Notes: generated by a model from the sequence alone, not told the origin. A DNA stretch of 64,000 bases from an uncultured Solirubrobacteraceae bacterium (GCA_963838405.1 CAWIRA010000005.1:83071-147070), one strand, 5' to 3'; shown: positions 10,812 through 20,757, numbered from the stretch's first letter. Numbers and translations are program-made.

Positions 10812-11600
10812 GTGCGCTTCCCGCGAGCAAGCAGCCGTGCACCAGGCGACGGACCGTATGCGCGGCGCGCGGTTAGCCGCACCGCTGGCGCGGCGCTGCT
10901 GGTAGTGCTCGCGCTCGGCACTACGGGCTGTGCAGTCAAGGGTGAGGACAACGCGAACCTGATCGTCGGCAAGCAGGCGTTCGTCGCCAAGTGCGGCTCG
11001 TGTCACGCGCTCGCCCACGCCGACACCAAGGGCATCGTCGGTCCCGATCTCGACGAAGTCTTCCGCACGAGCATCGCCGAAGGCCTGCAGCGAAACGCTG
11101 TGCGCACGGTCGTCGAAGGCCAGGTCCAGAACCCCAACCCCGACGGGGTGATGCCGAAAGACCTCGCCAGCGGCTCCACGCTGACGGACATCGCCGCCTA
11201 CGTCGCCCAGGTGGCCGCCAAGCCCGGCGCCGACACGGGCCTGCTGGCGAGCGCGGTCGAAGCGCCCGGGGCGGGCAAGCCCGCGGTCGAGAAGGCGGGC
11301 AAGCTGGACATCGACGCCAACCCCGCCGGCGAGCTGGCGTACACGACCACCAAGGCCGAAGCGCAGCCGGGCGCCGTCACGATCGAAATGGCGAACATGT
11401 CGGGCGTCTCGCACAACATCGCCGTGGAACCCGGCGAAAATGGCGCCACGCAGAAGACCGCGGCGATCGGCGCCAGCTCATTCATCACGAAGGGCACGAC
11501 GTCCGTGACCGTCAACCTGAAACCGGGCAAGTACACGTTCTTCTGCGAGGCTCCCGGCCACCGCGCCGCGGGGATGTACGGCACGCTCACCGTGAAGTAG
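10812..11600 (+). CDS. Cytochrome c - cupredoxin (type 1 copper) fusion lipoprotein
   Basis: Lipobox TTGC, CGSCH heme motif with distal GVMP, then HNI and CEAPGHRAAGM copper ligands. Confidence 0.88.
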   Translation: MRFPRASSRAPGDGPYARRAVSRTAGAALLVVLALGTTGCAVKGEDNANLIVGKQAFVAKCGSCHALAHADTKGIVGPDLDEVFRTSIAEGLQRNAVRTVVEGQVQNPNPDGVMPKDLASGSTLTDIAAYVAQVAAKPGADTGLLASAVEAPGAGKPAVEKAGKLDIDANPAGELAYTTTKAEAQPGAVTIEMANMSGVSHNIAVEPGENGATQKTAAIGASSFITKGTTSVTVNLKPGKYTFFCEAPGHRAAGMYGTLTVK

Positions 11601-11765: not shown

Positions 11766-12404
11766 TCAAAGAACGTAGACGGTCGTAAAGACGACGATCC
11801 ACATGATGTCGACGAAGTGCCAGTAGATGCCCGGCACCTCGACGCCACGGTGTGACTCGGGGCTGTAGTGGCCGCGGAAGGCGCGCACCGTCACGCTCAA
11901 CAGGATCAGCAGGCCGATGAACACGTGCGCGCCGTGTAGGCCTGTGAGCGAGTAGAAGACCGTCTGCTGCGCGTGGTCCTGCGGCGCGAAGCCAAGGTTC
12001 GCGTACTCGTTGATCTGGATGAACAGAAACGTGCAGCCGAGCAGGAACGTTGTCAGCATCCCGGCCTTGAAGCCGAAGCGGTTGCCGCGCTTGATCGATG
12101 CCTCAGCCCAATGCAGCGTAAACGATGAGGACACAAGGATCAGCGTGTTCACGAGCGCGACAGGTACCGGCAGGTGCATGCCGGGTGCGGGCCACGGTTC
12201 GCCTTCGGCGATGCGGATGAAGAAGTAGGCGGTGAAGAACGCCCCGAAGATCATCACCTCGGAGATGATGAAAAGCATCATTCCCAGCAGCGGCGCGTCG
12301 ACCCGCGAGCTGTGGTTCGCAGGGGGCGGCCCGTGGTGCTCGCCCGTGTCCCCGTGGGCGTGGCCGGCGCCGCCTGCCGGGTGGGAGATGCTGGCTGCCT
12401 CCAT
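11766..12404 (-). CDS. ctaE: Cytochrome c oxidase subunit III (short form)
   Basis: FIISEVMIFGAFF, NTLILVSSS, TGLHGAHV, YWHFVDIMW; ATG at 12404. Confidence 0.95.
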   Translation of the reverse strand: MEAASISHPAGGAGHAHGDTGEHHGPPPANHSSRVDAPLLGMMLFIISEVMIFGAFFTAYFFIRIAEGEPWPAPGMHLPVPVALVNTLILVSSSFTLHWAEASIKRGNRFGFKAGMLTTFLLGCTFLFIQINEYANLGFAPQDHAQQTVFYSLTGLHGAHVFIGLLILLSVTVRAFRGHYSPESHRGVEVPGIYWHFVDIMWIVVFTTVYVL

Positions 12405-12414
12405 GCTCGGCCTG

Positions 12415-13257
12415 CTATCCGGCCTGCGACGCGACGGTCGCGGCCTGTGTGTCGACGACGACGTGTTCAACCGGCACCGGCGTTGCGCCGCGCACGCGCT
12501 CGATCAGGTTGGAACGCATCCAGCCCGAGCGCTCTCCCGGCAGCGTCGAGATGACCACATCGTCGACGTGGAAAAGCTCGAGCGCGTTGATCGTCGCCGT
12601 GTACGGATCCGGGTCGCCGATCATGCCCGAGCTCAACAGCCCGGCGGCGTGCAGCCGGTCGAGCATGCTCGCCAGGCGTTCGCGCGCCTCGCGCGGCGCG
12701 CCGCCGCTGCCATCGAGCTGGGGCACGACGGCGATGAACAGCCGCGCGTCGGCTTCGCCCGCCTTCGCGAGCAGGTGCGCGATCAGCTCCTCGCCGCTGG
12801 AGGTCTTGTGCGCGACCACCAGCGTGACCTTCACCGACAGCCCTTCCTGGTCGATGTCGGCCACGATGTGCTCGACCGGCAGCGCCGTGGCGTTCCGGAC
12901 CCGCTCGATCAGATCCCGTCGCAGCCATCCCGAGTGCTGCATCGGATAGGTCGAGAGGATGATCTCGTCGGGCCGGTGCTGGGCGACGGCGTCCATCGTC
13001 GCCATGAACGCGTCGGAGTCGCCGACCTCGCCGCTCGCCTCGATGCCTTCCGCCGCGACCGCCGACAGCGCCAGATCGACGCGCACCTGCGCAGATTCAC
13101 GGACCGCCTCGTCGTAGATGACGAGACCCGCGGACGGGTTCGTCTGGGGCACGACCAGCCTGAAGCGGACGTCGCCCGACGCAGCACGCTCGCGCACGGC
13201 CTCGCGCAGCTTCTCGCCACCGAGCGTACGGTTGGCGATCACAAGAACTTCCTTCAT
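12415..13257 (-). CDS. Two-repeat USP-like (adenine nucleotide alpha-hydrolase fold) protein
   Basis: Internal duplication VLVIANRTLGG...FRLVVP...GDSD...EIILST.P..SGWLR vs TLVVAHKTSSG...FIAVVP...GDPD...DVVISTLP..SGWMR; the USP fold call is inference. Confidence 0.6.
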   Translation of the reverse strand: MKEVLVIANRTLGGEKLREAVRERAASGDVRFRLVVPQTNPSAGLVIYDEAVRESAQVRVDLALSAVAAEGIEASGEVGDSDAFMATMDAVAQHRPDEIILSTYPMQHSGWLRRDLIERVRNATALPVEHIVADIDQEGLSVKVTLVVAHKTSSGEELIAHLLAKAGEADARLFIAVVPQLDGSGGAPREARERLASMLDRLHAAGLLSSGMIGDPDPYTATINALELFHVDDVVISTLPGERSGWMRSNLIERVRGATPVPVEHVVVDTQAATVASQAG

Positions 13258-13273: not shown

Positions 13274-15178
13274 TCATTGGCTTGGTGCGTGCGCGACGCC
13301 GGTCCCCGCTCCCACCGGGGTTGGCGCCGGTCCGAGGATGCCGTGGACAGCGCCCGGAACGCCGTACTCGTACGGCCCGCCCACGACCGTCGGAACGCGG
13401 TCGAAGTTGAAGATCGGCGGTGGCGAGGAGACCTGCCACTCGAGCGTCATGCTGCGCCAGGGGTTGTCGCCCGCGATCGGGCCGCCGCGCCAGCTAGTGA
13501 CGATGTTGTAGAGGAAGATCAGCATGCTCAGGCCCAGGCCGAAGCTCGCGATCGAGATGAACAGGTTGAGGTCGGCGAACTTCGCTGCGTAGGTGGCAAC
13601 GCGCCGCGGCATGCCCTGCAGGCCGAGGACGTGCATCGGGCCGAAGGTCAGGTTCATGAGGATGAACGTCGTCCAGAAATGCCACTTGCCGAGACGCTCG
13701 TCATACATGCGTCCGGTCATCTTCGGGAACCAGTAATACACGCCAGCGAAGATCGTCATCAGCGAGCCGCCGAACAGCACATAGTGAATATGGGCGACGA
13801 TGAAATAGGTGGAGCTGACGTCGATGTCGAACGGCACCATCGCCAGCATGATCCCGCTGATCCCGCCAAGCGTGAAGGTGGTGATGAAACCAAGCGCGAA
13901 CAGCATCGGTGTGTCGAGGTGAAGCACCCCTCGCCACAGCGTCGCCAGCCACGAGAACACCTTGATGCCGGTTGGCACCGCGATGATCGCGGTCGTGATC
14001 GACATCGGGATGCGGATCCACGCAGCCATGCCGGAGGTGAACATGTGGTGCGCCCACACCGTGAAGCCGAGCCCGACGATCGCCAGCAGCGAGAAAGCCA
14101 TCATGCGGTAGCCAAAGATCGGCTTGCGGGCCTTCACGGCGATGACTTCGCTGATGATCCCGAAGCCGGGCAAGATCATGATGTACACCGCCGGGTGTGA
14201 GTAGAACCAGAAGATGTGTTGGTACATCAGCACGTTGCCGCCCGCCGCTGCGTTGAAGAAGTTAAAGCCGAGCGCCCGGTCGAGCAGCACCATGAACTGC
14301 GACGCGGCGATGAACGGCGTGGCGATCACAACCAGCAGCGATGTCGCGAAGTTCGCCCACACCAGCAGCGGCATCCGGAAGAAGCTCATGCCCGGTGCGC
14401 GCATCGTGATGATCGTGACCAGGAAGTTGAGCGCGGTCATGATCGAGGAGGCGCCTGCGAACTGCACGCCGATCGAGAAGAAGTCCTGCCCGATCGGCGA
14501 GTTGGTTGACAGCGGCGCGTACGCCGTCCAGCCGTCCGCGAACGCCCCGCCGGGCGCCAGGAAGCTGAGCAGCATGATCGTTCCGGCCACGGGCAGCAGC
14601 CAGAACGACAGCGCGTTCAGGCGCGGGAACGCCATGTCCGGGGCGCCGATCATCAGCGGGATCACGAAGTTGCCGAAGCCGGCGAACACCGGCACCATGA
14701 ACAGGAAGATCAAGATCGTCGCGTGGACCGAGAACAGGCCGTTGAACGTGTTGGCGCTGACGAAGTGCGACCCCGGCTGCGCCAGCTGCGCCCGCATCAG
14801 CATCGCCAGCAGCCCGCCGATCAGCAGGAAGATGAACGAGTTCACCAGGTACTGCACGCCGATCACCTTGTGGTCGGTGTTGATGCGGAAGTAGTCCTTC
14901 CACGTGCGCGCGCCGTGACCGGAGTGATCCTCGGGGCGGGTAGGACGGCCCGTGGCCCAGTAGAACCAGTAGTCGAAGCCGCCGATGCCGACGAGGAACG
15001 CCAGCGGCACCGCGAGCAGCGCCACCGTCAGGATCGCTTCGCCCTTGATGAAGTGCGTGAAGGTCGTGTGTCCGGTGGACATCCGCACGACCCACGTCAG
15101 CAGCACCGAAAAGCCGACGGCGGCGACCATCAGCCAGGCGGCGCGATAGAAGCCCGGGCCTCGGAGCTTCGCTGCCAT
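13274..15178 (-). CDS. ctaD: Cytochrome c oxidase subunit I, A2-type
   Basis: TDHKVIG, WFYSHPAVY (YS motif), WAHHMF, PTGIK, AHIHYV, GMPRR. Confidence 0.97.
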   Translation of the reverse strand: MAAKLRGPGFYRAAWLMVAAVGFSVLLTWVVRMSTGHTTFTHFIKGEAILTVALLAVPLAFLVGIGGFDYWFYWATGRPTRPEDHSGHGARTWKDYFRINTDHKVIGVQYLVNSFIFLLIGGLLAMLMRAQLAQPGSHFVSANTFNGLFSVHATILIFLFMVPVFAGFGNFVIPLMIGAPDMAFPRLNALSFWLLPVAGTIMLLSFLAPGGAFADGWTAYAPLSTNSPIGQDFFSIGVQFAGASSIMTALNFLVTIITMRAPGMSFFRMPLLVWANFATSLLVVIATPFIAASQFMVLLDRALGFNFFNAAAGGNVLMYQHIFWFYSHPAVYIMILPGFGIISEVIAVKARKPIFGYRMMAFSLLAIVGLGFTVWAHHMFTSGMAAWIRIPMSITTAIIAVPTGIKVFSWLATLWRGVLHLDTPMLFALGFITTFTLGGISGIMLAMVPFDIDVSSTYFIVAHIHYVLFGGSLMTIFAGVYYWFPKMTGRMYDERLGKWHFWTTFILMNLTFGPMHVLGLQGMPRRVATYAAKFADLNLFISIASFGLGLSMLIFLYNIVTSWRGGPIAGDNPWRSMTLEWQVSSPPPIFNFDRVPTVVGGPYEYGVPGAVHGILGPAPTPVGAGTGVAHAPSQ

Positions 15179-15279
15179 CAGCGTGCCTCCGGTGAAAGCA
15201 TCAGATCGAAGCCATCTAGCACGAGCCCATCTCCCACGAGCCGGTCTCCCATCAAGCGGTCGCCTTCTGCAAGCAACAC
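15178..15279 (-). CDS. Candidate 33-aa micro-ORF bridging ctaC and ctaD
   Basis: GTG overlaps ctaC TAG by 1 nt and TGA overlaps ctaD ATG by 1 nt; could instead be the ctaC tail if the G7 run is miscalled. Confidence 0.35.
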   Translation of the reverse strand: MLLAEGDRLMGDRLVGDGLVLDGFDLMLSPEAR

Positions 15280-16043
15280 TATCCGCTCGCCCCCCCGCCA
15301 GTCGAGCTGCTCGCGCCGGCGCGCAGCTGGCTCCTGATCCACGTCTGGAACGCCGCTGGCGTGACCACGTGCACGGTCGTGCGCATCAACGAATGGCCCA
15401 CCCCGCAGAGCAGGTTGCACACGGCGACGTAGTTGCCGAGGCGGTTCGGGGTGACCTGGATATGCGTGGTGATGCCGGGCACGACATCCTCCTGCACGCG
15501 GAACGCAGGGACGTAGAAGGCGTGGATGACGTCCTTGGAGCGCATGTTGAAGTACACGGGCCGATTGTCGGGGAGATAGAGGTCGTAGCTGTTGATCGTC
15601 GCGCCACCGGTCACCGACCGCGGATACTGGAAGGACCAGTAGAACTGCTGTCCGGTGATGCCGATCTGCAGCTCGTGCGCGGGTTTCTTTTCGTTATCGG
15701 CCAAGATCACGAACGAGTAGCCGACCATCCCGAGCATCAGGATCGCCGGGATCGCCGTCCAGAAGACCTCCAGGCGCGTGTTGCCGTGTATAGGCGCACC
15801 GTCCAGGAGCTCTTGGCCCGGGCGCAGGTGGAACTGCCACACGCAGAACAGGATCACCGCGACGACCAGCACGAAGATCGGGATCGACGCGATCATCAGC
15901 ACGTGGTAGAGGATGTCGGTGTTGTGGGCCTGGGTCGAAGCCTGGACCGGGAACCAATGGATTGCGTAGCTGAGCCAGATCCCGAGCGCCACGGCGATCA
16001 CCGCGAGAACGCCCGCAACGATCATCGAGCGTCGGCTAGGCAT
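15279..16043 (-). CDS. ctaC: Cytochrome c oxidase subunit II (CuA), partner of the A2-type subunit I
   Basis: IHGNTRLEVFWT, GQQFYWSF, DVIHAF, CNLLCGVGHSLM. Confidence 0.96.
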   Translation of the reverse strand: MPSRRSMIVAGVLAVIAVALGIWLSYAIHWFPVQASTQAHNTDILYHVLMIASIPIFVLVVAVILFCVWQFHLRPGQELLDGAPIHGNTRLEVFWTAIPAILMLGMVGYSFVILADNEKKPAHELQIGITGQQFYWSFQYPRSVTGGATINSYDLYLPDNRPVYFNMRSKDVIHAFYVPAFRVQEDVVPGITTHIQVTPNRLGNYVAVCNLLCGVGHSLMRTTVHVVTPAAFQTWIRSQLRAGASSSTGGGASG

Positions 16044-16161
16044 GCGCGCCCGCGTGTTCCCGCATCAAAAATCCCTGTGCGCCTGTCGGCTCCATCCCGC
16101 CGCTGATCCTAACCCGTCCGCCGACGGATAGCTAGACCTTTTCGGCGCCGCTGGCGAGCAC

Positions 16162-16190
16162 TTGACGGCGAGGCTCGCGAGCACTAGATT
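16162..16190 (+). promoter_or_regulatory. Sigma70-type promoter of the CBS gene
   Basis: TTGACG-N17-TAGATT. Confidence 0.7.
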
Positions 16191-16299
16191 GAGGCAATAG
16201 TTGCAAGTGCTCGGAGGGGCGTCCCTCCGGGCAGGTTGACCGCAGGAGCGTTGCCGTTGCGCCATCGATGGAGCATCTGAGCGGGAGGTGGGAGCGAGC

Positions 16300-16713
16300 A
16301 TGCAAGTCCAGCAAGGCATGAGCGAGATGGTCCTCACAGTCGGTCCCAGCCACACGCTGCGCGAGGTCGCGAAGCTGATGGCGCAGCGGCGCGTGGGCGC
16401 GGCCGTGGTCATGGACCCGGACGGCCCTGGCCCGGGCATCATCACCGAGCGCGACATCCTCGTGGCGCTCGGCGCCGGCGAGGATCCGGACCACGAGCAG
16501 GTCATCGACCATCTGACGCGCGACGTCGTCTTCGCTGCGCCCGACTGGTCGCTGGAGGAGGCCGCGGCGGCGATGGTTCGCGGCGGCTTCCGTCACCTGA
16601 TCGTCCTCCAGCGCGGCGAGACCATCGGTGTGCTGTCCGTGCGCGACATCGTGCGCTGCTGGACCGACGACGGTGCGATCTGCTCGGTGCCCGCCAGGGT
16701 AGCCGTGGGGTGA
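16300..16713 (+). CDS. Stand-alone tandem CBS-domain protein
   Basis: GPGIITERDI, FRHLIV, GVLSVRDIV; RBS GGAG before ATG 16300. Confidence 0.9.
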   Translation: MQVQQGMSEMVLTVGPSHTLREVAKLMAQRRVGAAVVMDPDGPGPGIITERDILVALGAGEDPDHEQVIDHLTRDVVFAAPDWSLEEAAAAMVRGGFRHLIVLQRGETIGVLSVRDIVRCWTDDGAICSVPARVAVG

Positions 16714-16721
16714 ACGGGGGA

Positions 16722-16756
16722 GGTGGCAGGCCTGCTTTGGGGAGCAGGCTGCCACC
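16722..16756 (+). terminator. GC-rich hairpin after the CBS gene
   Basis: GGTGGCAG-G-CCTGCT/TTGGGG/AGCAGG-CTGCCACC, no U tract. Confidence 0.55.
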
Positions 16757-16765
16757 ACCACGGCC

Positions 16766-16870
16766 CCAGCGGACCGTCGACGCGGCGCGGACCGGTGTCC
16801 TCGGTCGCTCGCGTGCCTTCGCACGCCACGCTTCCTGCGTCCTTGGTCCGCTTGGTCGACGGCCCGCTGG
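16766..16870 (-). repeat. Structured dispersed element, copy B
   Basis: CCAGCGGACCGTCGAC...GTCGACGGCCCGCTGG terminal stem; core matches copy A at 40 of 45 non-loop positions. Confidence 0.8.
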
Positions 16871-16909
16871 TCGATGATTCGGCGGCCGAGCGGGGCGCGC
16901 GACCTGCGT

Positions 16910-17137
16910 CTAGCGGTGGTCTAGCGGGAGTTCGTTGACTTCGCGGCGCGTGTCTTTGATCCAGAGTGCGATGCAGACGACCGTCAGGATCCCGCCGATG
17001 ACGGTGAACTCGATGAACGTGGTGACGCCGACCAGCGTGAGCGTAATACCCACGGCGGTCAGCAGCGGCAGGATGCTTGGCCCGGGAAGGTGGATCTCCT
17101 CGCCGACGGGCGGCACGTCAGGATCGACGGGGCTCAT
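16910..17137 (-). CDS. 75-aa two-TM protein, cytochrome c oxidase subunit IV (CtaF-like)
   Basis: GEEIHLPGPSILPLL...WIKD pattern; ATGA-coupled at the end of the ctaC-ctaD-ctaB operon. Confidence 0.7.
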   Translation of the reverse strand: MSPVDPDVPPVGEEIHLPGPSILPLLTAVGITLTLVGVTTFIEFTVIGGILTVVCIALWIKDTRREVNELPLDHR

Positions 17138-17247
17138 GAGATGTACGCGGCGGCGACGACGAACGTCAGGCCGAACATGAACATGCAGATCGCGGCCACG
17201 ATCAGCCCGGTGATGATGTTCTTGCGTGCGAGGCGGCGGGTCATCAT
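17134..17247 (-). CDS. 37-aa single-TM protein downstream of ctaB
   Basis: MMTRRLARKNIITGLIVAAICMFMFGLTFVVAAAYIS; ATGA overlap with next gene; below ORF-track cutoff. Confidence 0.65.
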   Translation of the reverse strand: MMTRRLARKNIITGLIVAAICMFMFGLTFVVAAAYIS

Positions 17248-17265
17248 GGGCGTGAAGATTACCGC

Positions 17266-18201
17266 CTAGAGGTGCCGGTCGGCGACCATCGCGCAGAACA
17301 GCAGCGCTAGGTACGCGAGTGAGTAGAGGTACAGGCGCAACGCCGAGCGCCGGTCGGCCCGTCGATACAGGCGCACGGCGCCGGCGATGAAGCCGACGCC
17401 CAGCACCAGCGACGCCACGAGGTAGATCGCGCCGAAGCCGCCCGCGCAGAACGGCAGCTGTGTGACCGCGTACAACAGCACGGAGTAGAGGAGGATCTGC
17501 CGCCGCGTCTCGGCCTCGCCGCGCACCACGGGTAGCATCGGCACGCCGACCTCGCCGTACTCGTCCTTCATCAGCAGCGACAGCGCCCAGAAGTGCGGCG
17601 GCGTCCAGAAGAAGACGATGAAGAACAGGATCACCGCGGTGCCGCTGACCGAGCCGGTGACCGCCGCCCAGCCGACCAGCGGCGGCACCGCACCGGCGGC
17701 GCCGCCGATGACGATGTTCTGCGGGGTACGCCGCTTCAGCCAGAAGGTGTACACGAACACGTAGCCGAGGAAGCCGGAGAACGAGAGCGCCGCTGCGAGC
17801 GGGTTGACGGTCAGCGACAGCTCGAGCAACGACAGCGCCGCGAGCGTGCAACCGAACACGAGCGCGGCGCGCGGTGAGATCCGCCCCGCCGGAATCGGCC
17901 TCGTGGCGGTGCGAGCCATGCGCGCGTCGATGTCGCGGTCGAACCAGTGGTTCACGGCGCCCGCGCCGCCCGCGGACAGGTAGCCGCCGAGGCAGGTGAG
18001 CGCGACCAACAGCACCGACGGATCGCCCGCGACGTACATCGTCGCGATCGTCGTCAGCAGCAGCAGCGATTGGACCTTCGGCTTGGTCAGCTCCAGGTAG
18101 TCGCTCAGCACCTGCAGCGCGCCGCCCGCGCGGCGATCGGCGATCGCGAGTGTCGGTGTCTCGATCGCCGGCGCTGCGCCTGGGTGTGGCGCGAGGCTCA
18201 T
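17266..18201 (-). CDS. ctaB: Protoheme IX farnesyltransferase (heme o synthase)
   Basis: YLELTKPKV, NHWFDRDIDARMARTATRP, LKRRTPQNIVIGG, WTPPHFWAL. Confidence 0.97.
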   Translation of the reverse strand: MSLAPHPGAAPAIETPTLAIADRRAGGALQVLSDYLELTKPKVQSLLLLTTIATMYVAGDPSVLLVALTCLGGYLSAGGAGAVNHWFDRDIDARMARTATRPIPAGRISPRAALVFGCTLAALSLLELSLTVNPLAAALSFSGFLGYVFVYTFWLKRRTPQNIVIGGAAGAVPPLVGWAAVTGSVSGTAVILFFIVFFWTPPHFWALSLLMKDEYGEVGVPMLPVVRGEAETRRQILLYSVLLYAVTQLPFCAGGFGAIYLVASLVLGVGFIAGAVRLYRRADRRSALRLYLYSLAYLALLFCAMVADRHL

Positions 18202-19905
18202 CTACAGGCCGACCTGCGTCGCTCCCGCCGGGACCGTGGCCGTCCCCGGCGCGCGTGCGCCGCCGCTCGCTCGCTCGATCTCGCGGCGGATGTCCTTCAT
18301 CGGCTCAAACGAGCGCACCAACGGCACTACGTCGAAGTTGTTGACCGGCGGCGGCGACGCCGTGAACCACTCGAGCGTGTTCGCCTTCCACGGGTCCGGG
18401 CCGGCGATCACGCCGACCTTGAGACTGCGCCAGACGTTGATGACGGTCACGCCGACCCCAGCGGCGAGGATGAACGAGCCGACCGTCGAGATCAGGTTGT
18501 ACAGGTGCAGGTGACCCACGTTCGGGTACTCGTACACGCGCCGCGGCATCCCGTCAAGTCCGATCACGTGCTGAATCAGGAACGTGACGATGATCCCGAT
18601 GAATATCAACCAGAAGCTCAGCTTGCCGAGGCCTTCTCCGAGCATGCGTCCGGTGATCTTCGGGAACCAGTAGTAGATCGCGGCGAAGATCGGCAGCACC
18701 GCGCCGCCGACCAGCACGAAGTGGATGTGCGCGACCACGAAGTACGTTTCGTTGAGCTGCCAGTCGACGGGGAAGATCGCGAGGAAGACCCCCGAGATGC
18801 CGCCGATCAGGAACACGGCGATGAACCCCGCGCAGAACAGCAGCGGCGTCTTGAATTCGATCGTGCCGCGCCACAGCGTCGCGATCCAGTTGAGCATCTT
18901 CACGCCCGTCGGCACCGCGATCAGGAACGAGCTGAGCATCACGAACACGAGGATCGCCTCCGGTATCGGCGCCGTGAACATGTGGTGCGCCCACGTCAGG
19001 AAGCCGAGGAAGGCGATCGCCACGGTCGACGCCGCGATCGCCTTGTAGCCGAAGATCGGCTTGCGCGCGAACACCGGCAGGATCTCCGAGACGATGCCGA
19101 AGCCCGGCAGCACCATGATGTAGACCTCCGGGTGCCCGAAGAACCAGAACAGGTTCTGCCACAAAAGCGGCGAGCCGCCGAGGGCGGGGTCGAACCAGTG
19201 GGTGCCGAAGTGGCGGTCGGTGAGCAGCATCGTCACCGCTGCCGCGATCACCGGCAGCGCGAAGATCAGCAGCACCGAGTACGTCAACATCGCCCACACG
19301 AACAGCGGCAGCCGGCCCCAGCTCATGCCGCGCGCGCGCATGTTGGCGACGGTCGCGTAGAAGTTGATCGCCCCGACCAGCGATGAGATGCCGGTGAGGT
19401 GGATCAGGTAGATCCAAGCGTCCTGCCCGCCGGACGGCGAGTACAGGGTGCTGGAGAGGGGGGGATAGCTCGTCCAGCCCGCTTCCGGCGGGTGCCAGAA
19501 GATCGACGCGTAGAAGACGATGCCGCCGGCGAGCAGCAGCCAGAAGGACAGCGCGTTCAGCCGCGGGAACGCCATGTCGCGCGCGCCAATCATCAGCGGC
19601 AGGAAGTAGTTGGCGATCCCCGCCATCATCGGCACGACGAACAGGAAGATCATCGTCGTGCCGTGCATCGTGAACAGCTGGTTGTAGATTTCCGGCGTCA
19701 CCAGCGTGTTGTTCGGGGCGCCCAGCTGCAGGCGGATCATCAGCGCCTCGACGCCGCCGAGGATGAAGAACACGAACGTCAGGACCATGTACATGATCCC
19801 GATGCGCTTGTGGTCGGTGGTCGTGATCCAGCTCGTCCAGCCGCTCGCCTCGCGCTCGGCGCGATGGGCGGTTATCTCTGGGATGGGGGCTACGTAGGTG
19901 GCCAT
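18202..19905 (-). CDS. ctaD: Cytochrome c oxidase subunit I, A1-type
   Basis: TDHKRIG, TMHGT, WFFGHPEVY, WAHHMF, PTGVK, AHIHFV, GMPRR. Confidence 0.97.
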   Translation of the reverse strand: MATYVAPIPEITAHRAEREASGWTSWITTTDHKRIGIMYMVLTFVFFILGGVEALMIRLQLGAPNNTLVTPEIYNQLFTMHGTTMIFLFVVPMMAGIANYFLPLMIGARDMAFPRLNALSFWLLLAGGIVFYASIFWHPPEAGWTSYPPLSSTLYSPSGGQDAWIYLIHLTGISSLVGAINFYATVANMRARGMSWGRLPLFVWAMLTYSVLLIFALPVIAAAVTMLLTDRHFGTHWFDPALGGSPLLWQNLFWFFGHPEVYIMVLPGFGIVSEILPVFARKPIFGYKAIAASTVAIAFLGFLTWAHHMFTAPIPEAILVFVMLSSFLIAVPTGVKMLNWIATLWRGTIEFKTPLLFCAGFIAVFLIGGISGVFLAIFPVDWQLNETYFVVAHIHFVLVGGAVLPIFAAIYYWFPKITGRMLGEGLGKLSFWLIFIGIIVTFLIQHVIGLDGMPRRVYEYPNVGHLHLYNLISTVGSFILAAGVGVTVINVWRSLKVGVIAGPDPWKANTLEWFTASPPPVNNFDVVPLVRSFEPMKDIRREIERASGGARAPGTATVPAGATQVGL

Positions 19906-19929
19906 TTCGTGCGCTGGTCTCCTGGTGTC

Positions 19930-20757
19930 CTAGGGGTTCTCGACCTTTTCGGCGCCTTCGTGTGCGTTAAGCAGGGTGCGCGCCTTCGCCGCTTCCCTGT
20001 TGGCTTCTGAGATCTCCTGCTTCTGGTTCGCAAGCCACGCTTCGAACTGCGCCGGCGGCACCGCCTTGACGGTCGCGATCATGCGCGCGTGCCCGCGACC
20101 GCACAGCAGCGCGCACTGGCCGCGGAACAGCCCCGGCTTGCTGACCTTGAACCACGTGTAGTTGTGGTAGCCGGGCACCGCCTGAAACTTTCCGCCCAGT
20201 TCCGGCACCCACCACGAGTGCACGACGTCCTGCGAGACGATGTTCAGCGTGACCGTCGTGTTGGTCGGCACGACGAGTTCCTCATAGCTGTAGGGCGCGC
20301 CCAGACCGTCGGGTTCGTTCGCTCCCGGGTACACGAACTGCCACACGTACTGACGGCCGATCACCGTGATTTCCAGCGATTTGCCATTCGGTGGCAAGCG
20401 GCGCTGGTTGCTCGCGTAGAGCAGGTTGTTCTGTTCGCCCAGGTCCGCCAGTGAGGACCCGCCCGGTCCCGAGTTCGGCGGATCCTGGATCGAGGACAGC
20501 TTCGAGAACGTCAGCACGGCAAGGCCGAGCAGGATCACGGCTGCCGCGACCGTCCAGCTCACCTCCAGGCGGGTGTTGCCGTGGATCTGCGCCGGCACCG
20601 CGCCCTTGCGCTTACGGAACCTGACCAGCGCGTACACCAGCGCCCCCTCGACCGCGAAGAAGATCACCAGCGCTATGTAGAGCGTGATGTCGTAGAGGTT
20701 GCTGATCTCGTGCGCGTTCGGCGAAGCACCGTGCGCAGGACCAAAGAACGCGAGCAT
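19930..20757 (-). CDS. ctaC: Cytochrome c oxidase subunit II (CuA), partner of the A1-type subunit I
   Basis: IHGNTRLEVSWT, GRQYVWQF, DVVHSWW, CALLCGRGHARM; start ATG 20757 or TTG 20778, not 21558. Confidence 0.95.
   Translation of the reverse strand: MLAFFGPAHGASPNAHEISNLYDITLYIALVIFFAVEGALVYALVRFRKRKGAVPAQIHGNTRLEVSWTVAAAVILLGLAVLTFSKLSSIQDPPNSGPGGSSLADLGEQNNLLYASNQRRLPPNGKSLEITVIGRQYVWQFVYPGANEPDGLGAPYSYEELVVPTNTTVTLNIVSQDVVHSWWVPELGGKFQAVPGYHNYTWFKVSKPGLFRGQCALLCGRGHARMIATVKAVPPAQFEAWLANQKQEISEANREAAKARTLLNAHEGAEKVENP

Follow-up and report, generated by a model that had tools for sequence, protein, structure and literature searches.

In A-type haem-copper oxidases a Mg2+/Mn2+ centre links subunit I to subunit II over the haem propionates. 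It lies in the region through which water and protons leave, and its necessity has been probed mainly by point mutants. Mycobacterial CtaC keeps the CuA-loop Glu of this centre. The A-family quinol oxidases, such as E. coli bo3 and Bacillus aa3-600, lack the Mg centre; members of this group have His-Asn at the subunit I position, as in representatives reading HNSLFLVAHFH. Reviews describe the Mn/Mg site as common to A-type oxidases in general (PMC8361435, section 3.5; PMC9145763), and one school holds that the water cluster at the Mg site stores four pumped protons per cycle (PMC12901375). Precedent for a Mg-free inter-subunit water cluster is found in Thermus thermophilus ba3, which has His376-Asn377 and a CuA loop of Cys-Asn150-Gln151-Tyr-Cys (PMC12901375, Table 1). 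Full-text searches of a literature collection short of the classical mutagenesis papers gave no description of Mg-free A-type oxidases or of oxidases of the lineage described here.

We investigated two oxygen-reducing oxidase operons, one A1-type and one A2-type, in the window, the whole stretch of 64,000 nucleotides that was analysed. The host is an uncultured soil actinobacterium of the Solirubrobacteraceae, and both operons lie on the minus strand. The genes considered here are:

19930-20757, minus strand: A1-type oxidase subunit II (CtaC/CoxB), 275 aa, ATG at 20757; Pfam COX2 and COX2_TM
18202-19905, minus strand: A1-type oxidase subunit I (CtaD), 567 aa, GHPEVY motif; Pfam COX1, 548 bits
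17266-18201, minus strand: haem O synthase (CtaB/CyoE), final gene of the A1 operon; Pfam UbiA, E 8e-68
15279-16043, minus strand: A2-type oxidase subunit II, 254 aa; Pfam COX2 and COX2_TM
13274-15178, minus strand: A2-type oxidase subunit I, 634 aa, YSHPAVY motif; Pfam COX1, 521 bits
11766-12470, minus strand: subunit III (COX3), downstream in the A2 operon; Pfam COX3, E 3e-40
10812-11600, plus strand: cytochrome c-cupredoxin fusion protein, candidate electron donor, convergent with the A2 operon

The A2 subunit I has an N-terminal extension of ~70-90 aa. The COX3 gene is the only one of the locus and is given as context, since it lies outside the metal site. As the genome has no other haem-copper oxidases, the A1 and A2 enzymes must carry aerobic respiration.

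In fold and subunit set, both enzymes resemble the bovine, Paracoccus denitrificans, Rhodobacter sphaeroides aa3 and Thermus caa3 oxidases (subunit I E 1e-118 to 1e-146). Their closest solved relatives are the CtaD/CtaC of the actinobacterial aa3 oxidase in the CIII2CIV2 supercomplex of Mycobacterium smegmatis, M. tuberculosis and Corynebacterium glutamicum, with E values of 6e-164 for A1 and 2e-158 for A2. The subunit I anchors (the haem a His, the D-channel Asp, GHPEVY or YSHPAVY, WAHHMF, the K-channel Lys, AHxH and MPRR) followed bovine numbering at a constant offset from His290 through Arg438. A1 carries the motifs of its subfamily, MHG, GHPEVY, WAHHMF and AHIH, which include the six His ligands, the cross-link Tyr and the D-channel Glu, and also has the D-channel entrance Asp110 in RDMAFPRLN and the K-channel Lys336 in PTGVK. 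A2 likewise carries those of its own, namely WFYSHPAVY, in which Tyr-Ser replaces the D-channel Glu, together with VHAT, WAHHMF, AHIHY, PTGIK and PDMAFPRLN. Matches to the ba3 subunit I were far weaker (E 1e-8 to 1e-11, against 1e-158 or better for A-type) and the D-channel residues are present, which places neither enzyme in the B-type.

The CuA ligands are complete in both subunits II, as DVVHSW...CALLCGRGHARM in A1, with the electron-entry Trp in YVWQF, and as DVIHAF...CNLLCGVGHSLM in A2, with this Trp in FYWSF. The retained His, Cys-x3-Cys, His and Met identify both as subunits of cytochrome c oxidases, in contrast to the quinol oxidases, whose subunit II lacks the CuA ligands. With canonical A-type enzymes the two oxidases thus have in common the six His ligands, the cross-link Tyr, the D-channel Asp, the K-channel Lys, the Arg pair and the CuA ligands. 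The translations and the bovine-offset anchors bear out the initial annotation on this point, as it had listed the CuA, CuB and haem ligands, the K-channel Lys, the D-channel Asp and the arginines as kept.

The Mg/Mn positions differ. In place of the canonical His-Asp and CxExC Glu, A1 has Asn-Glu and Leu, and A2 has Ser-Ser and Leu. The A1 subunit I reads ...PVDWQLNETYFVVAHIHFV..., with Asn385-Glu386 (18748-18753) at the position of bovine His368-Asp369, while the A1 CuA loop CALLCGRGHARM (20080-20115), which contains CALLC, has Leu217 (20107-20109) in place of bovine Glu198. A1 subunit II also differs from that of R. sphaeroides in having Gln192 (20182-20184) instead of Asp229 (bovine Asp173). 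In A2, subunit I reads ...PFDIDVSSTYFIVAHIHYV..., with Ser455-Ser456 (13811-13816) at the His368-Asp369 position, and the CuA loop CNLLCGVGHSLM (15384-15419), which contains CNLLC, has Leu211 (15411-15413) for Glu198 and Asn210 for bovine Ser197. Gln184 of A2 subunit II (15492-15494) stands in place of R. sphaeroides Lys227, and Thr529 of A2 subunit I (13592-13594) in place of bovine Asp442, the Ca/Na-site Asp. Fixed differences were seen in both subunits II, in A1 against orthologues from outgroups.

As the initial annotation had anticipated, alignment to solved structures confirmed these assignments. In ungapped HMMER alignments, both Leu face the Glu of CAELCG (Thermus caa3) and of CSELCG (Paracoccus and R. 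sphaeroides), and the Asn-Glu of A1 and the Ser-Ser of A2 face the Thr-Asp of M. smegmatis CtaD (HVTDSYFVIAHFH), which is itself already without the His ligand. Most relatives of the actinobacterial aa3 enzyme also lack this His (Thr-Asp with Glu in 30 of the 80 named loci). The actinobacterial aa3 keeps the Asp, whereas the enzymes in the window have lost the Glu and A2 also the Asp. Electron entry should be unaffected, since CuA is ligated at the Glu198 position by a backbone carbonyl and the other CuA ligands are kept.

The claim that both oxidases had lost the Mg/Mn ligands on both subunits therefore needs to be divided. For A2 it stands at all positions, and no carboxylate ligand remains among the aligned residues. 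For A1, 'lost' is strictly true of the subunit II Glu only; subunit I retains a carboxylate (Asp to Glu), its Asn-Glu may still ligate, and a remodelled cation site is possible. The A2 of the window has, in addition, an Asp two residues upstream of Ser-Ser (FDIDVSS), which is a possible extra ligand; relatives have His at this position, and it is not conserved within the genus.

Next, we asked how reproducible these states are. None of the best 120 close homologues fell below 85% identity, and breadth was instead obtained from 50%-cluster representatives and whole-genome pattern scans. Among the best matches listed for A1 (at least 85% identity), 119 of 121 homologue clusters have Asn-Glu and all 121 have the Glu. 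The same residue states were found in all same-genus genomes examined and, given this agreement and the 119 clusters, chance or sequencing error can be dismissed. All members of the genus that we found are uncultured, metagenome-assembled genomes. Within the genus, some A1 enzymes have Lys-Glu instead of Asn-Glu, and the subunit II Glu position is occupied by six residues (L, N, F, A, I and V); across genera, the A2 Asp position holds A, S, G, K or Q. At the level of residues, this variation after the loss resembles a site that has gone out of use under relaxed constraint, more than a route built anew; the altered water/proton exit route proposed in the initial annotation would be only one reading. 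The genes themselves are under purifying selection in both enzymes: within the genus, subunit I had a dN/dS of 0.15-0.22 and subunit II one of 0.24-0.37, values not exceeding those of a sister genus whose sites are canonical.

We then placed the substitutions in the history of the family. Most Solirubrobacteraceae genera keep Asp and Glu, as do the orthologues in other genera and families, which upholds the proposal that the changes in the four genes belong together. The view of a single lineage trait did not hold, as the change is stepwise and lineage-specific within Solirubrobacteraceae, with both enzymes altered in about three lineages. For A1, the family series runs from Asn-Asp with Glu, through Asn-Asp with Gln, Phe or Leu, to Asn-Glu with Asn, Leu and others; early-branching members of the genus have Asn at the subunit II position (CANMC, CANLC). 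For A2, it comprises Ser-Gln with Glu, Ser-Lys with Glu (the Ser-Lys in another genus), Ser-Ala with Gln and then Ser-Ala with Leu. Changing alongside the ligands are the residues at R. sphaeroides Lys227 and Asp229 in subunit II, at bovine Ser197 and immediately before the Met ligand.

In the A1 tree, the genus clade (Asn-Glu with non-Glu) is nested among relatives with His/Thr-Asp and Glu, and in the A2 tree the genus clade (Ser-Ala/Ser with Leu) is nested among relatives with Ser-Asp and Glu (clade supports 99-100). A single origin of the A1 Glu loss was rejected (p-AU 3e-10), and a single clade of altered genera was rejected on A1 subunit I (p 1e-4) and, marginally, on RpoB (p 0.035). On the A2 subunit I tree, a single origin for all altered A2 genes was not rejected (p 0.53), so that three independent concerted losses rest on A1 and the marginal RpoB test. 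Every altered lineage showed changes in both enzymes, seven canonical genera showed none, and no genus had A1 alone altered. Correlated loss of Asp and Glu on the gene tree did not reach significance, with only 2-3 independent contrast pairs.

Taken from sequence, the reading we consider probable is that these are working A-type oxidases that both lack the canonical Mg2+/Mn2+ centre, which has been lost or remodelled. The metal would be absent and proton pumping retained. In A2, Ser-Ser (or Ser-Ala) in subunit I, Asn-Leu in the CuA loop and the change of the neighbouring subunit II Lys to Gln would leave a site that almost certainly holds no metal and is filled by hydrophobic and amide side chains, going further in the direction of Thermus ba3. 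The Asn-Gln pattern of Thermus ba3 is shared by the intermediate A2 loops of Solirubrobacteraceae, which read CNQLC; unlike ba3, which is B-type, has no D-channel and retains the His, the present enzymes are A-type with both channels, and the position has moved on to Leu. In A1, Leu has taken the place of the inter-subunit Glu and Gln that of the subunit II Asp close by, leaving the conserved Asn-Glu pair in subunit I, which may either form a hydrogen-bond or salt-bridge network replacing the metal or bind a cation with a reduced ligand set.

The latter possibility leads to an alternative that we regard as unlikely, though it deserves weight, in which only A2 is metal-free and A1 binds a divalent cation through the O-delta of Asn385, a possibly bidentate Glu386 and extra waters. 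The change from Asp to Glu would then be compensatory, the longer Glu386 reaching into the space left by the subunit II Glu. The Asn-Glu pair is indeed conserved like a catalytic residue among the best matches, the Asp to Glu change occurs only in the genus without the subunit II Glu and after that loss, and the early branches retain a polar Asn at the subunit II position. However, Leu, Phe, Ile, Val or Ala later took over this position, Gln has replaced the second nearby subunit II carboxylate (R. sphaeroides Asp229) as well, and two protein ligands would make a weak Mg site. Lys moreover replaces Asn in some members and would repel a cation; that Lys is tolerated at ligand positions in both enzymes (Lys-Glu in A1, Ser-Lys in A2) argues against a bound cation.

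It is very improbable that CuA was the primary target of selection, with the Glu removed and Arg added to retune CuA potential or docking for the cytochrome c-cupredoxin protein, and Mg loss as collateral. The A1 CuA loop has gained two Arg (CGRGHARM, as against CGSGHADM in other families) and the fusion gene does adjoin the A2 operon, but one genus with the Glu in place already has GRGHARM (CAEICGRGHARM), the fusion gene adjoins the operon throughout the order whether the lineage is canonical or altered, and the loss of the A2 subunit I Asp is left unexplained. Degeneration or a switch of function, to non-pumping oxidases, quinol oxidases or pseudogenes, is hardly credible, even though other families of the order have degenerate oxidase-like operons without CuA cysteines and haem histidines and A2 is also missing, besides the Ca/Na-site Asp, three prolines from the proline cluster that lies close to the water cluster (PMC12901375, Table 1), because the frames are intact, all haem, CuB, CuA, D- and K-channel residues are present, purifying selection equals that of canonical relatives (dN/dS 0.15-0.37, in line with the initial annotation, which had argued against decay), the complete CuA site speaks against a quinol oxidase, and the genome has no further haem-copper oxidase.

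Returning to loss or remodelling of the centre in both enzymes, the fact that the two paralogues changed together, genome by genome, suggests that a cell-level factor takes part in metallating the Mg/Mn site; it could supply the metal or insert it on the outer side of the membrane. We know of no such factor for this site. Cox11 is reportedly needed for both the CuB centre and the Mg centre (Hiser et al. 2000, cited in PMC9145763), and as the missing factor it can be set aside, since none of the 16 genomes tested, whether canonical or altered, has its profile (PF04442). A new electron donor as driver can also be set aside, as the cytochrome c-cupredoxin fusion adjoins the A2 operon in both kinds of lineage; an orthologue lies beside this operon in nearly all of 26 genomes, one genus having only a weak, unlinked match. 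The search for a cell-level cause thus gave no candidate with the Cox11 profile in 16 genomes or with the donor gene in 26. A compensating acid four residues before the A1 Arg pair (Ser to Asp, GLDGMPRR) was likewise discarded, because it is also present in canonical genera of the same family. We tentatively suggest, while considering it rather doubtful, that Mg/Mn occupancy depends on an external factor, either an insertion step or the supply of divalent cations on the outer side of the membrane in these soil bacteria, whose loss, approximately three times, let the sites of both paralogues decay in enzymes that still pump. If this were true, pumping would not require the Mg-containing water cluster, and its proposed role as a store of pumped protons would become directly testable.

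These genes would represent natural versions of a textbook enzyme under purifying selection, metal-free in A2 and with the site lost or remodelled in A1. Together with their relatives, they form a graded natural series in two A-type enzymes, from Asp and Glu by way of Gln, Lys and Asn to entirely apolar sites, and so offer sets of variants that mutagenesis in Paracoccus or Rhodobacter can take over as they are.

Two haem-copper oxidase operons, A1 and A2, occupy 11.6-20.8 kb of the window on the minus strand, with the following gene content:

19930-20757, minus strand: A1 subunit II
18202-19905, minus strand: A1 subunit I (P0003, 567 aa)
17266-18201, minus strand: haem O synthase of the A1 operon
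between the A1 and A2 operons, plus strand: CBS-domain gene
15279-16043, minus strand: A2 subunit II (P0002)
13274-15178, minus strand: A2 subunit I (P0001, 634 aa)
12415-13257, minus strand: 280-aa ORF of the A2 operon between subunit I and COX3, no Pfam match at E 1e-3
11766-12470, minus strand: COX3 of the A2 operon
minus strand: small ORF of the A2 operon, listed after COX3
10812-11600, plus strand: cytochrome c-cupredoxin fusion gene, convergent with the A2 operon

The source assembly (3.79 Mb, 93% complete) contains two COX1 and two COX2 genes, exactly these. Judged by the names given to near-identical proteins and loci, the organism belongs to uncultured Solirubrobacteraceae (Thermoleophilia). 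Judged by eye, the 280-aa ORF carries an internal tandem duplication. At its N-terminus (14894-15178), A2 subunit I is extended by ~70-90 residues, including two additional hydrophobic segments, ahead of the first residue alignable to solved structures.

The canonical Mg/Mn site combines a subunit I pair (bovine His368-Asp369) with the Glu of the subunit II CuA loop (CxExC; bovine Glu198), and the initial annotation held that both oxidases had lost these ligands on both subunits. In translation, the subunit I region reads PVDWQLNETYFVVAHIHFV in A1 and PFDIDVSSTYFIVAHIHYV in A2, and the CuA loops read CALLCGRGHARM and CNLLCGVGHSLM, respectively. HMMER alignments to solved structures, ungapped across the Mg-site and CuA motifs, placed the loop Leu at the Glu of CAELCG (Thermus caa3) and CSELCG (Paracoccus, R. 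sphaeroides), and both subunit I pairs at the Thr-Asp of M. smegmatis CtaD (HVTDSYFVIAHFH). Flanking anchors keep a constant offset, by which the pair position corresponds to bovine His368-Asp369. Ligand replacement was thus borne out by translation, alignment and anchor offset. Loss of every Mg ligand held for the loop Glu, now Leu in both enzymes, and for the A2 pair, but not for the A1 pair, where the substitutes (His to Asn, Asp to Glu) are still potential ligands. The haem a and a3 histidines, CuB histidines, D-channel Asp, K-channel Lys, Arg pair and every CuA ligand are present in both enzymes, as had been claimed, and so is the cross-link Tyr; A1 has GHPEVY and A2 YSHPAVY.

Further differences were seen in subunit I. 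Between the two haem His ligands, both enzymes have AHIH (18733-18735 and 13796-13798) where mitochondrial and proteobacterial enzymes have AHFH (bovine Phe377); Ile, Leu or Met is common here across the order Solirubrobacterales. In A2, Thr529 (13592-13594) replaces the Asp of PRRxxDY, the Ca/Na-site ligand (bovine Asp442, R. sphaeroides Asp485); Thr also occurs in A2 of this genus and of three other altered genera, and canonical relatives have Asp. At three positions of the bovine 'proline cluster' (Pro130, Pro222, Pro228; positions per PMC12901375, Table 1), A2 carries Ala, Ala and Val instead of Pro.

We then extracted paired subunit II and subunit I sequences from the whole genomes of related organisms. 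All 24 same-genus A1 pairs in the final table have a non-Glu loop residue with Asn-Glu (Lys-Glu in one), and same-genus A2 has CNLLC with Ser-Ala or Ser-Ser. Orthologues in other families of the order have CAELC with His-Asp or Thr-Asp (A1) and C[AT]ELC with Ser-Asp (A2). In a maximum-likelihood tree, the clades of the genus (support 100 each) were nested in the A1 and A2 clades, and because A1 and A2 are only ~50% identical, we conclude that the site changes arose separately in the two enzymes. A DNA-pattern search found the CuA loop in 150 of 151 genomes of the order. Loops whose third codon does not start in G, most of them real variants, occurred in 37 of 201 genomes and 15 of 51 genera of Solirubrobacteraceae.

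The loci fetched from these matches form a stepwise series within the family. The A1 series runs from His/Thr/Gln-Asp plus Glu (eight genera) through Asn-Asp plus Glu (two), Asn/Thr-Asp plus Gln (one), Ser/Asn-Asp plus Phe (one) and Asn-Asp plus Leu (two) to Asn-Glu, rarely Lys-Glu, plus L, N, F, A, I or V in the window's genus. For A2, the steps are Ser-Asp plus Glu (canonical genera), Ser-Gln plus Glu, Ser-Lys plus Glu or Gln, Ser-Ala plus Gln (loop CNQLC, the ba3 pattern), Ser-Gly plus Val, and Ser-Ala/Ser plus Leu. In A1 subunit II, R. sphaeroides Asp229 became Gln and two loop residues became Arg, and both changes preceded the Glu loss; the bovine equivalent of Asp229, Asp173, is a water-cluster residue (PMC12901375, Table 1). 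Accompanying changes in A2 subunit II were R. sphaeroides Lys227 to Gln, bovine Ser197 to Asn, and Leu at the residue preceding the Met ligand.

Among genera in which both enzymes were seen, both were canonical in seven and both altered in five; A2 alone was altered in two, and A1 alone in none. The hypothesis that A1 lost its Glu only once was rejected (p-AU 3e-10), and altered genera did not form one clade in the A1 subunit I tree (p 1e-4). The RpoB tree placed them in three groups, one sister to five canonical genera, with monophyly marginally rejected (p 0.035). The A2 tree was compatible with a single origin of altered A2 genes (p 0.53), and an altered A2 operon may have spread laterally. 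In either case the A1 Glu was lost repeatedly, only in genomes with A2 already altered, which suggests that the concerted loss has its cause at the level of the cell. Cox11 was dismissed as this cause, being absent from 16/16 genomes tested, as was the neighbouring cytochrome c-cupredoxin gene, found in canonical and altered lineages alike. Of 26 genomes drawn from across the order, nearly all have its orthologue beside the A2 operon; in one genus the gene is apparently split into two ORFs.

The initial annotation had also argued against decay, and pairwise dN/dS agrees: values within the genus (subunit I, 0.15-0.22; subunit II, 0.24-0.37) did not exceed those of a canonical sister genus (subunit I, 0.14-0.28; subunit II, 0.37-0.67). 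The vacated positions themselves drift: that of A1 subunit II holds six different residues inside one genus, and the A2 Asp position holds A, S, G, K or Q across genera. The site appears relaxed in enzymes that probably keep their function. Only the A1 Asn-Glu pair departs from this (Asn in 119/121 and Glu in 121/121 close homologue clusters), and it therefore still has some role. Lys can stand in for a ligand, as Lys-Glu (A1) and Ser-Lys (A2) show, which speaks against a cation remaining bound there.

Subunit I cluster representatives nearest A1 (n = 134) had His-Asp in 84, another residue with Asp in 27, and no Asp in 23 (HG, RG, HQ, HN, NG and others). A set of 80 named loci spanned many phyla; outside the family, nearly all had Asp plus Glu, with His-Asp rarer than Thr-Asp; the exceptions were Paraburkholderia, Candidatus Limnocylindrus and two Chloroflexota (Asp lost, Glu kept). 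Few real non-Glu loops, mostly CxQxC, occurred outside the family in 401 Actinomycetota genomes. Single-ligand variation is therefore scattered, and His is frequently substituted. CuA-containing A-type enzymes rarely lack both carboxylates, and within the samples taken only Solirubrobacteraceae showed this in both oxidases of one genome.

Reviews regard the Mn/Mg site as common to A-type oxidases in general (PMC8361435, section 3.5; PMC9145763). The mature enzyme is described as binding this ion tightly (PMC9145763), and the ion as joining subunits I and II (PMC3769247). Thermus ba3 is the known Mg-free case, with Asn377 and Asn150-Gln151 (PMC12901375; PMC3141039); it belongs to a different oxidase family than the A-type enzymes of the window. 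Its Asn-Gln loop pattern is shared by the intermediate A2 loop CNQLC. The literature searched described neither Mg-free A-type oxidases nor the oxidases of this lineage. Most likely, both enzymes are functional A-type oxidases in which the Mg/Mn centre has been lost (A2), or lost or reduced to a subunit I-only remnant (A1). The change was stepwise and affected the two paralogues in concert, in a small number of Solirubrobacteraceae lineages. The metal would probably be absent and pumping retained. The oxidases offer a useful natural test of what the Mg-water cluster does.

Several other variant oxidases were observed. In cultured Paraburkholderia strains (loci L174, L185), an A-type oxidase combines Thr-Asp with a Gln loop (C[TS]QFCGAQHAHM). 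The A2-type enzyme of a Candidatus Limnocylindrus metagenome-assembled genome (L172) combines His-Ala with Ala (CSAFC), which makes it a separate, independent double loss within Chloroflexota. Many same-genus genomes (L035-L043, L069-L074) carry a third, very divergent oxidase with His-Gly (HGSFFVMAHFH) and loop CAELCGIWHGxM, in which Asp is lost and Glu kept; the whole assembly of the window's genome (93% complete) has no copy. Family members L044, L091, L092 and L094 have another type, with GHP[VI]VY replacing GHPEVY, Asn-Asn or Asn-Met in subunit I, and CuA loops in which Trp, Met or Val replaces the Glu (CAWFCG, CSMFCG, CSVLCG). Lastly, oxidase-like operons in other families of the order (L053, L057-L059, L064, L065, L068) encode a subunit II homologue without CuA cysteines (e.g. 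RSAQFSGPGYATM) and a subunit I homologue without the AHxH haem-ligand motif, and are apparently degenerate or repurposed haem-copper oxidase paralogues.
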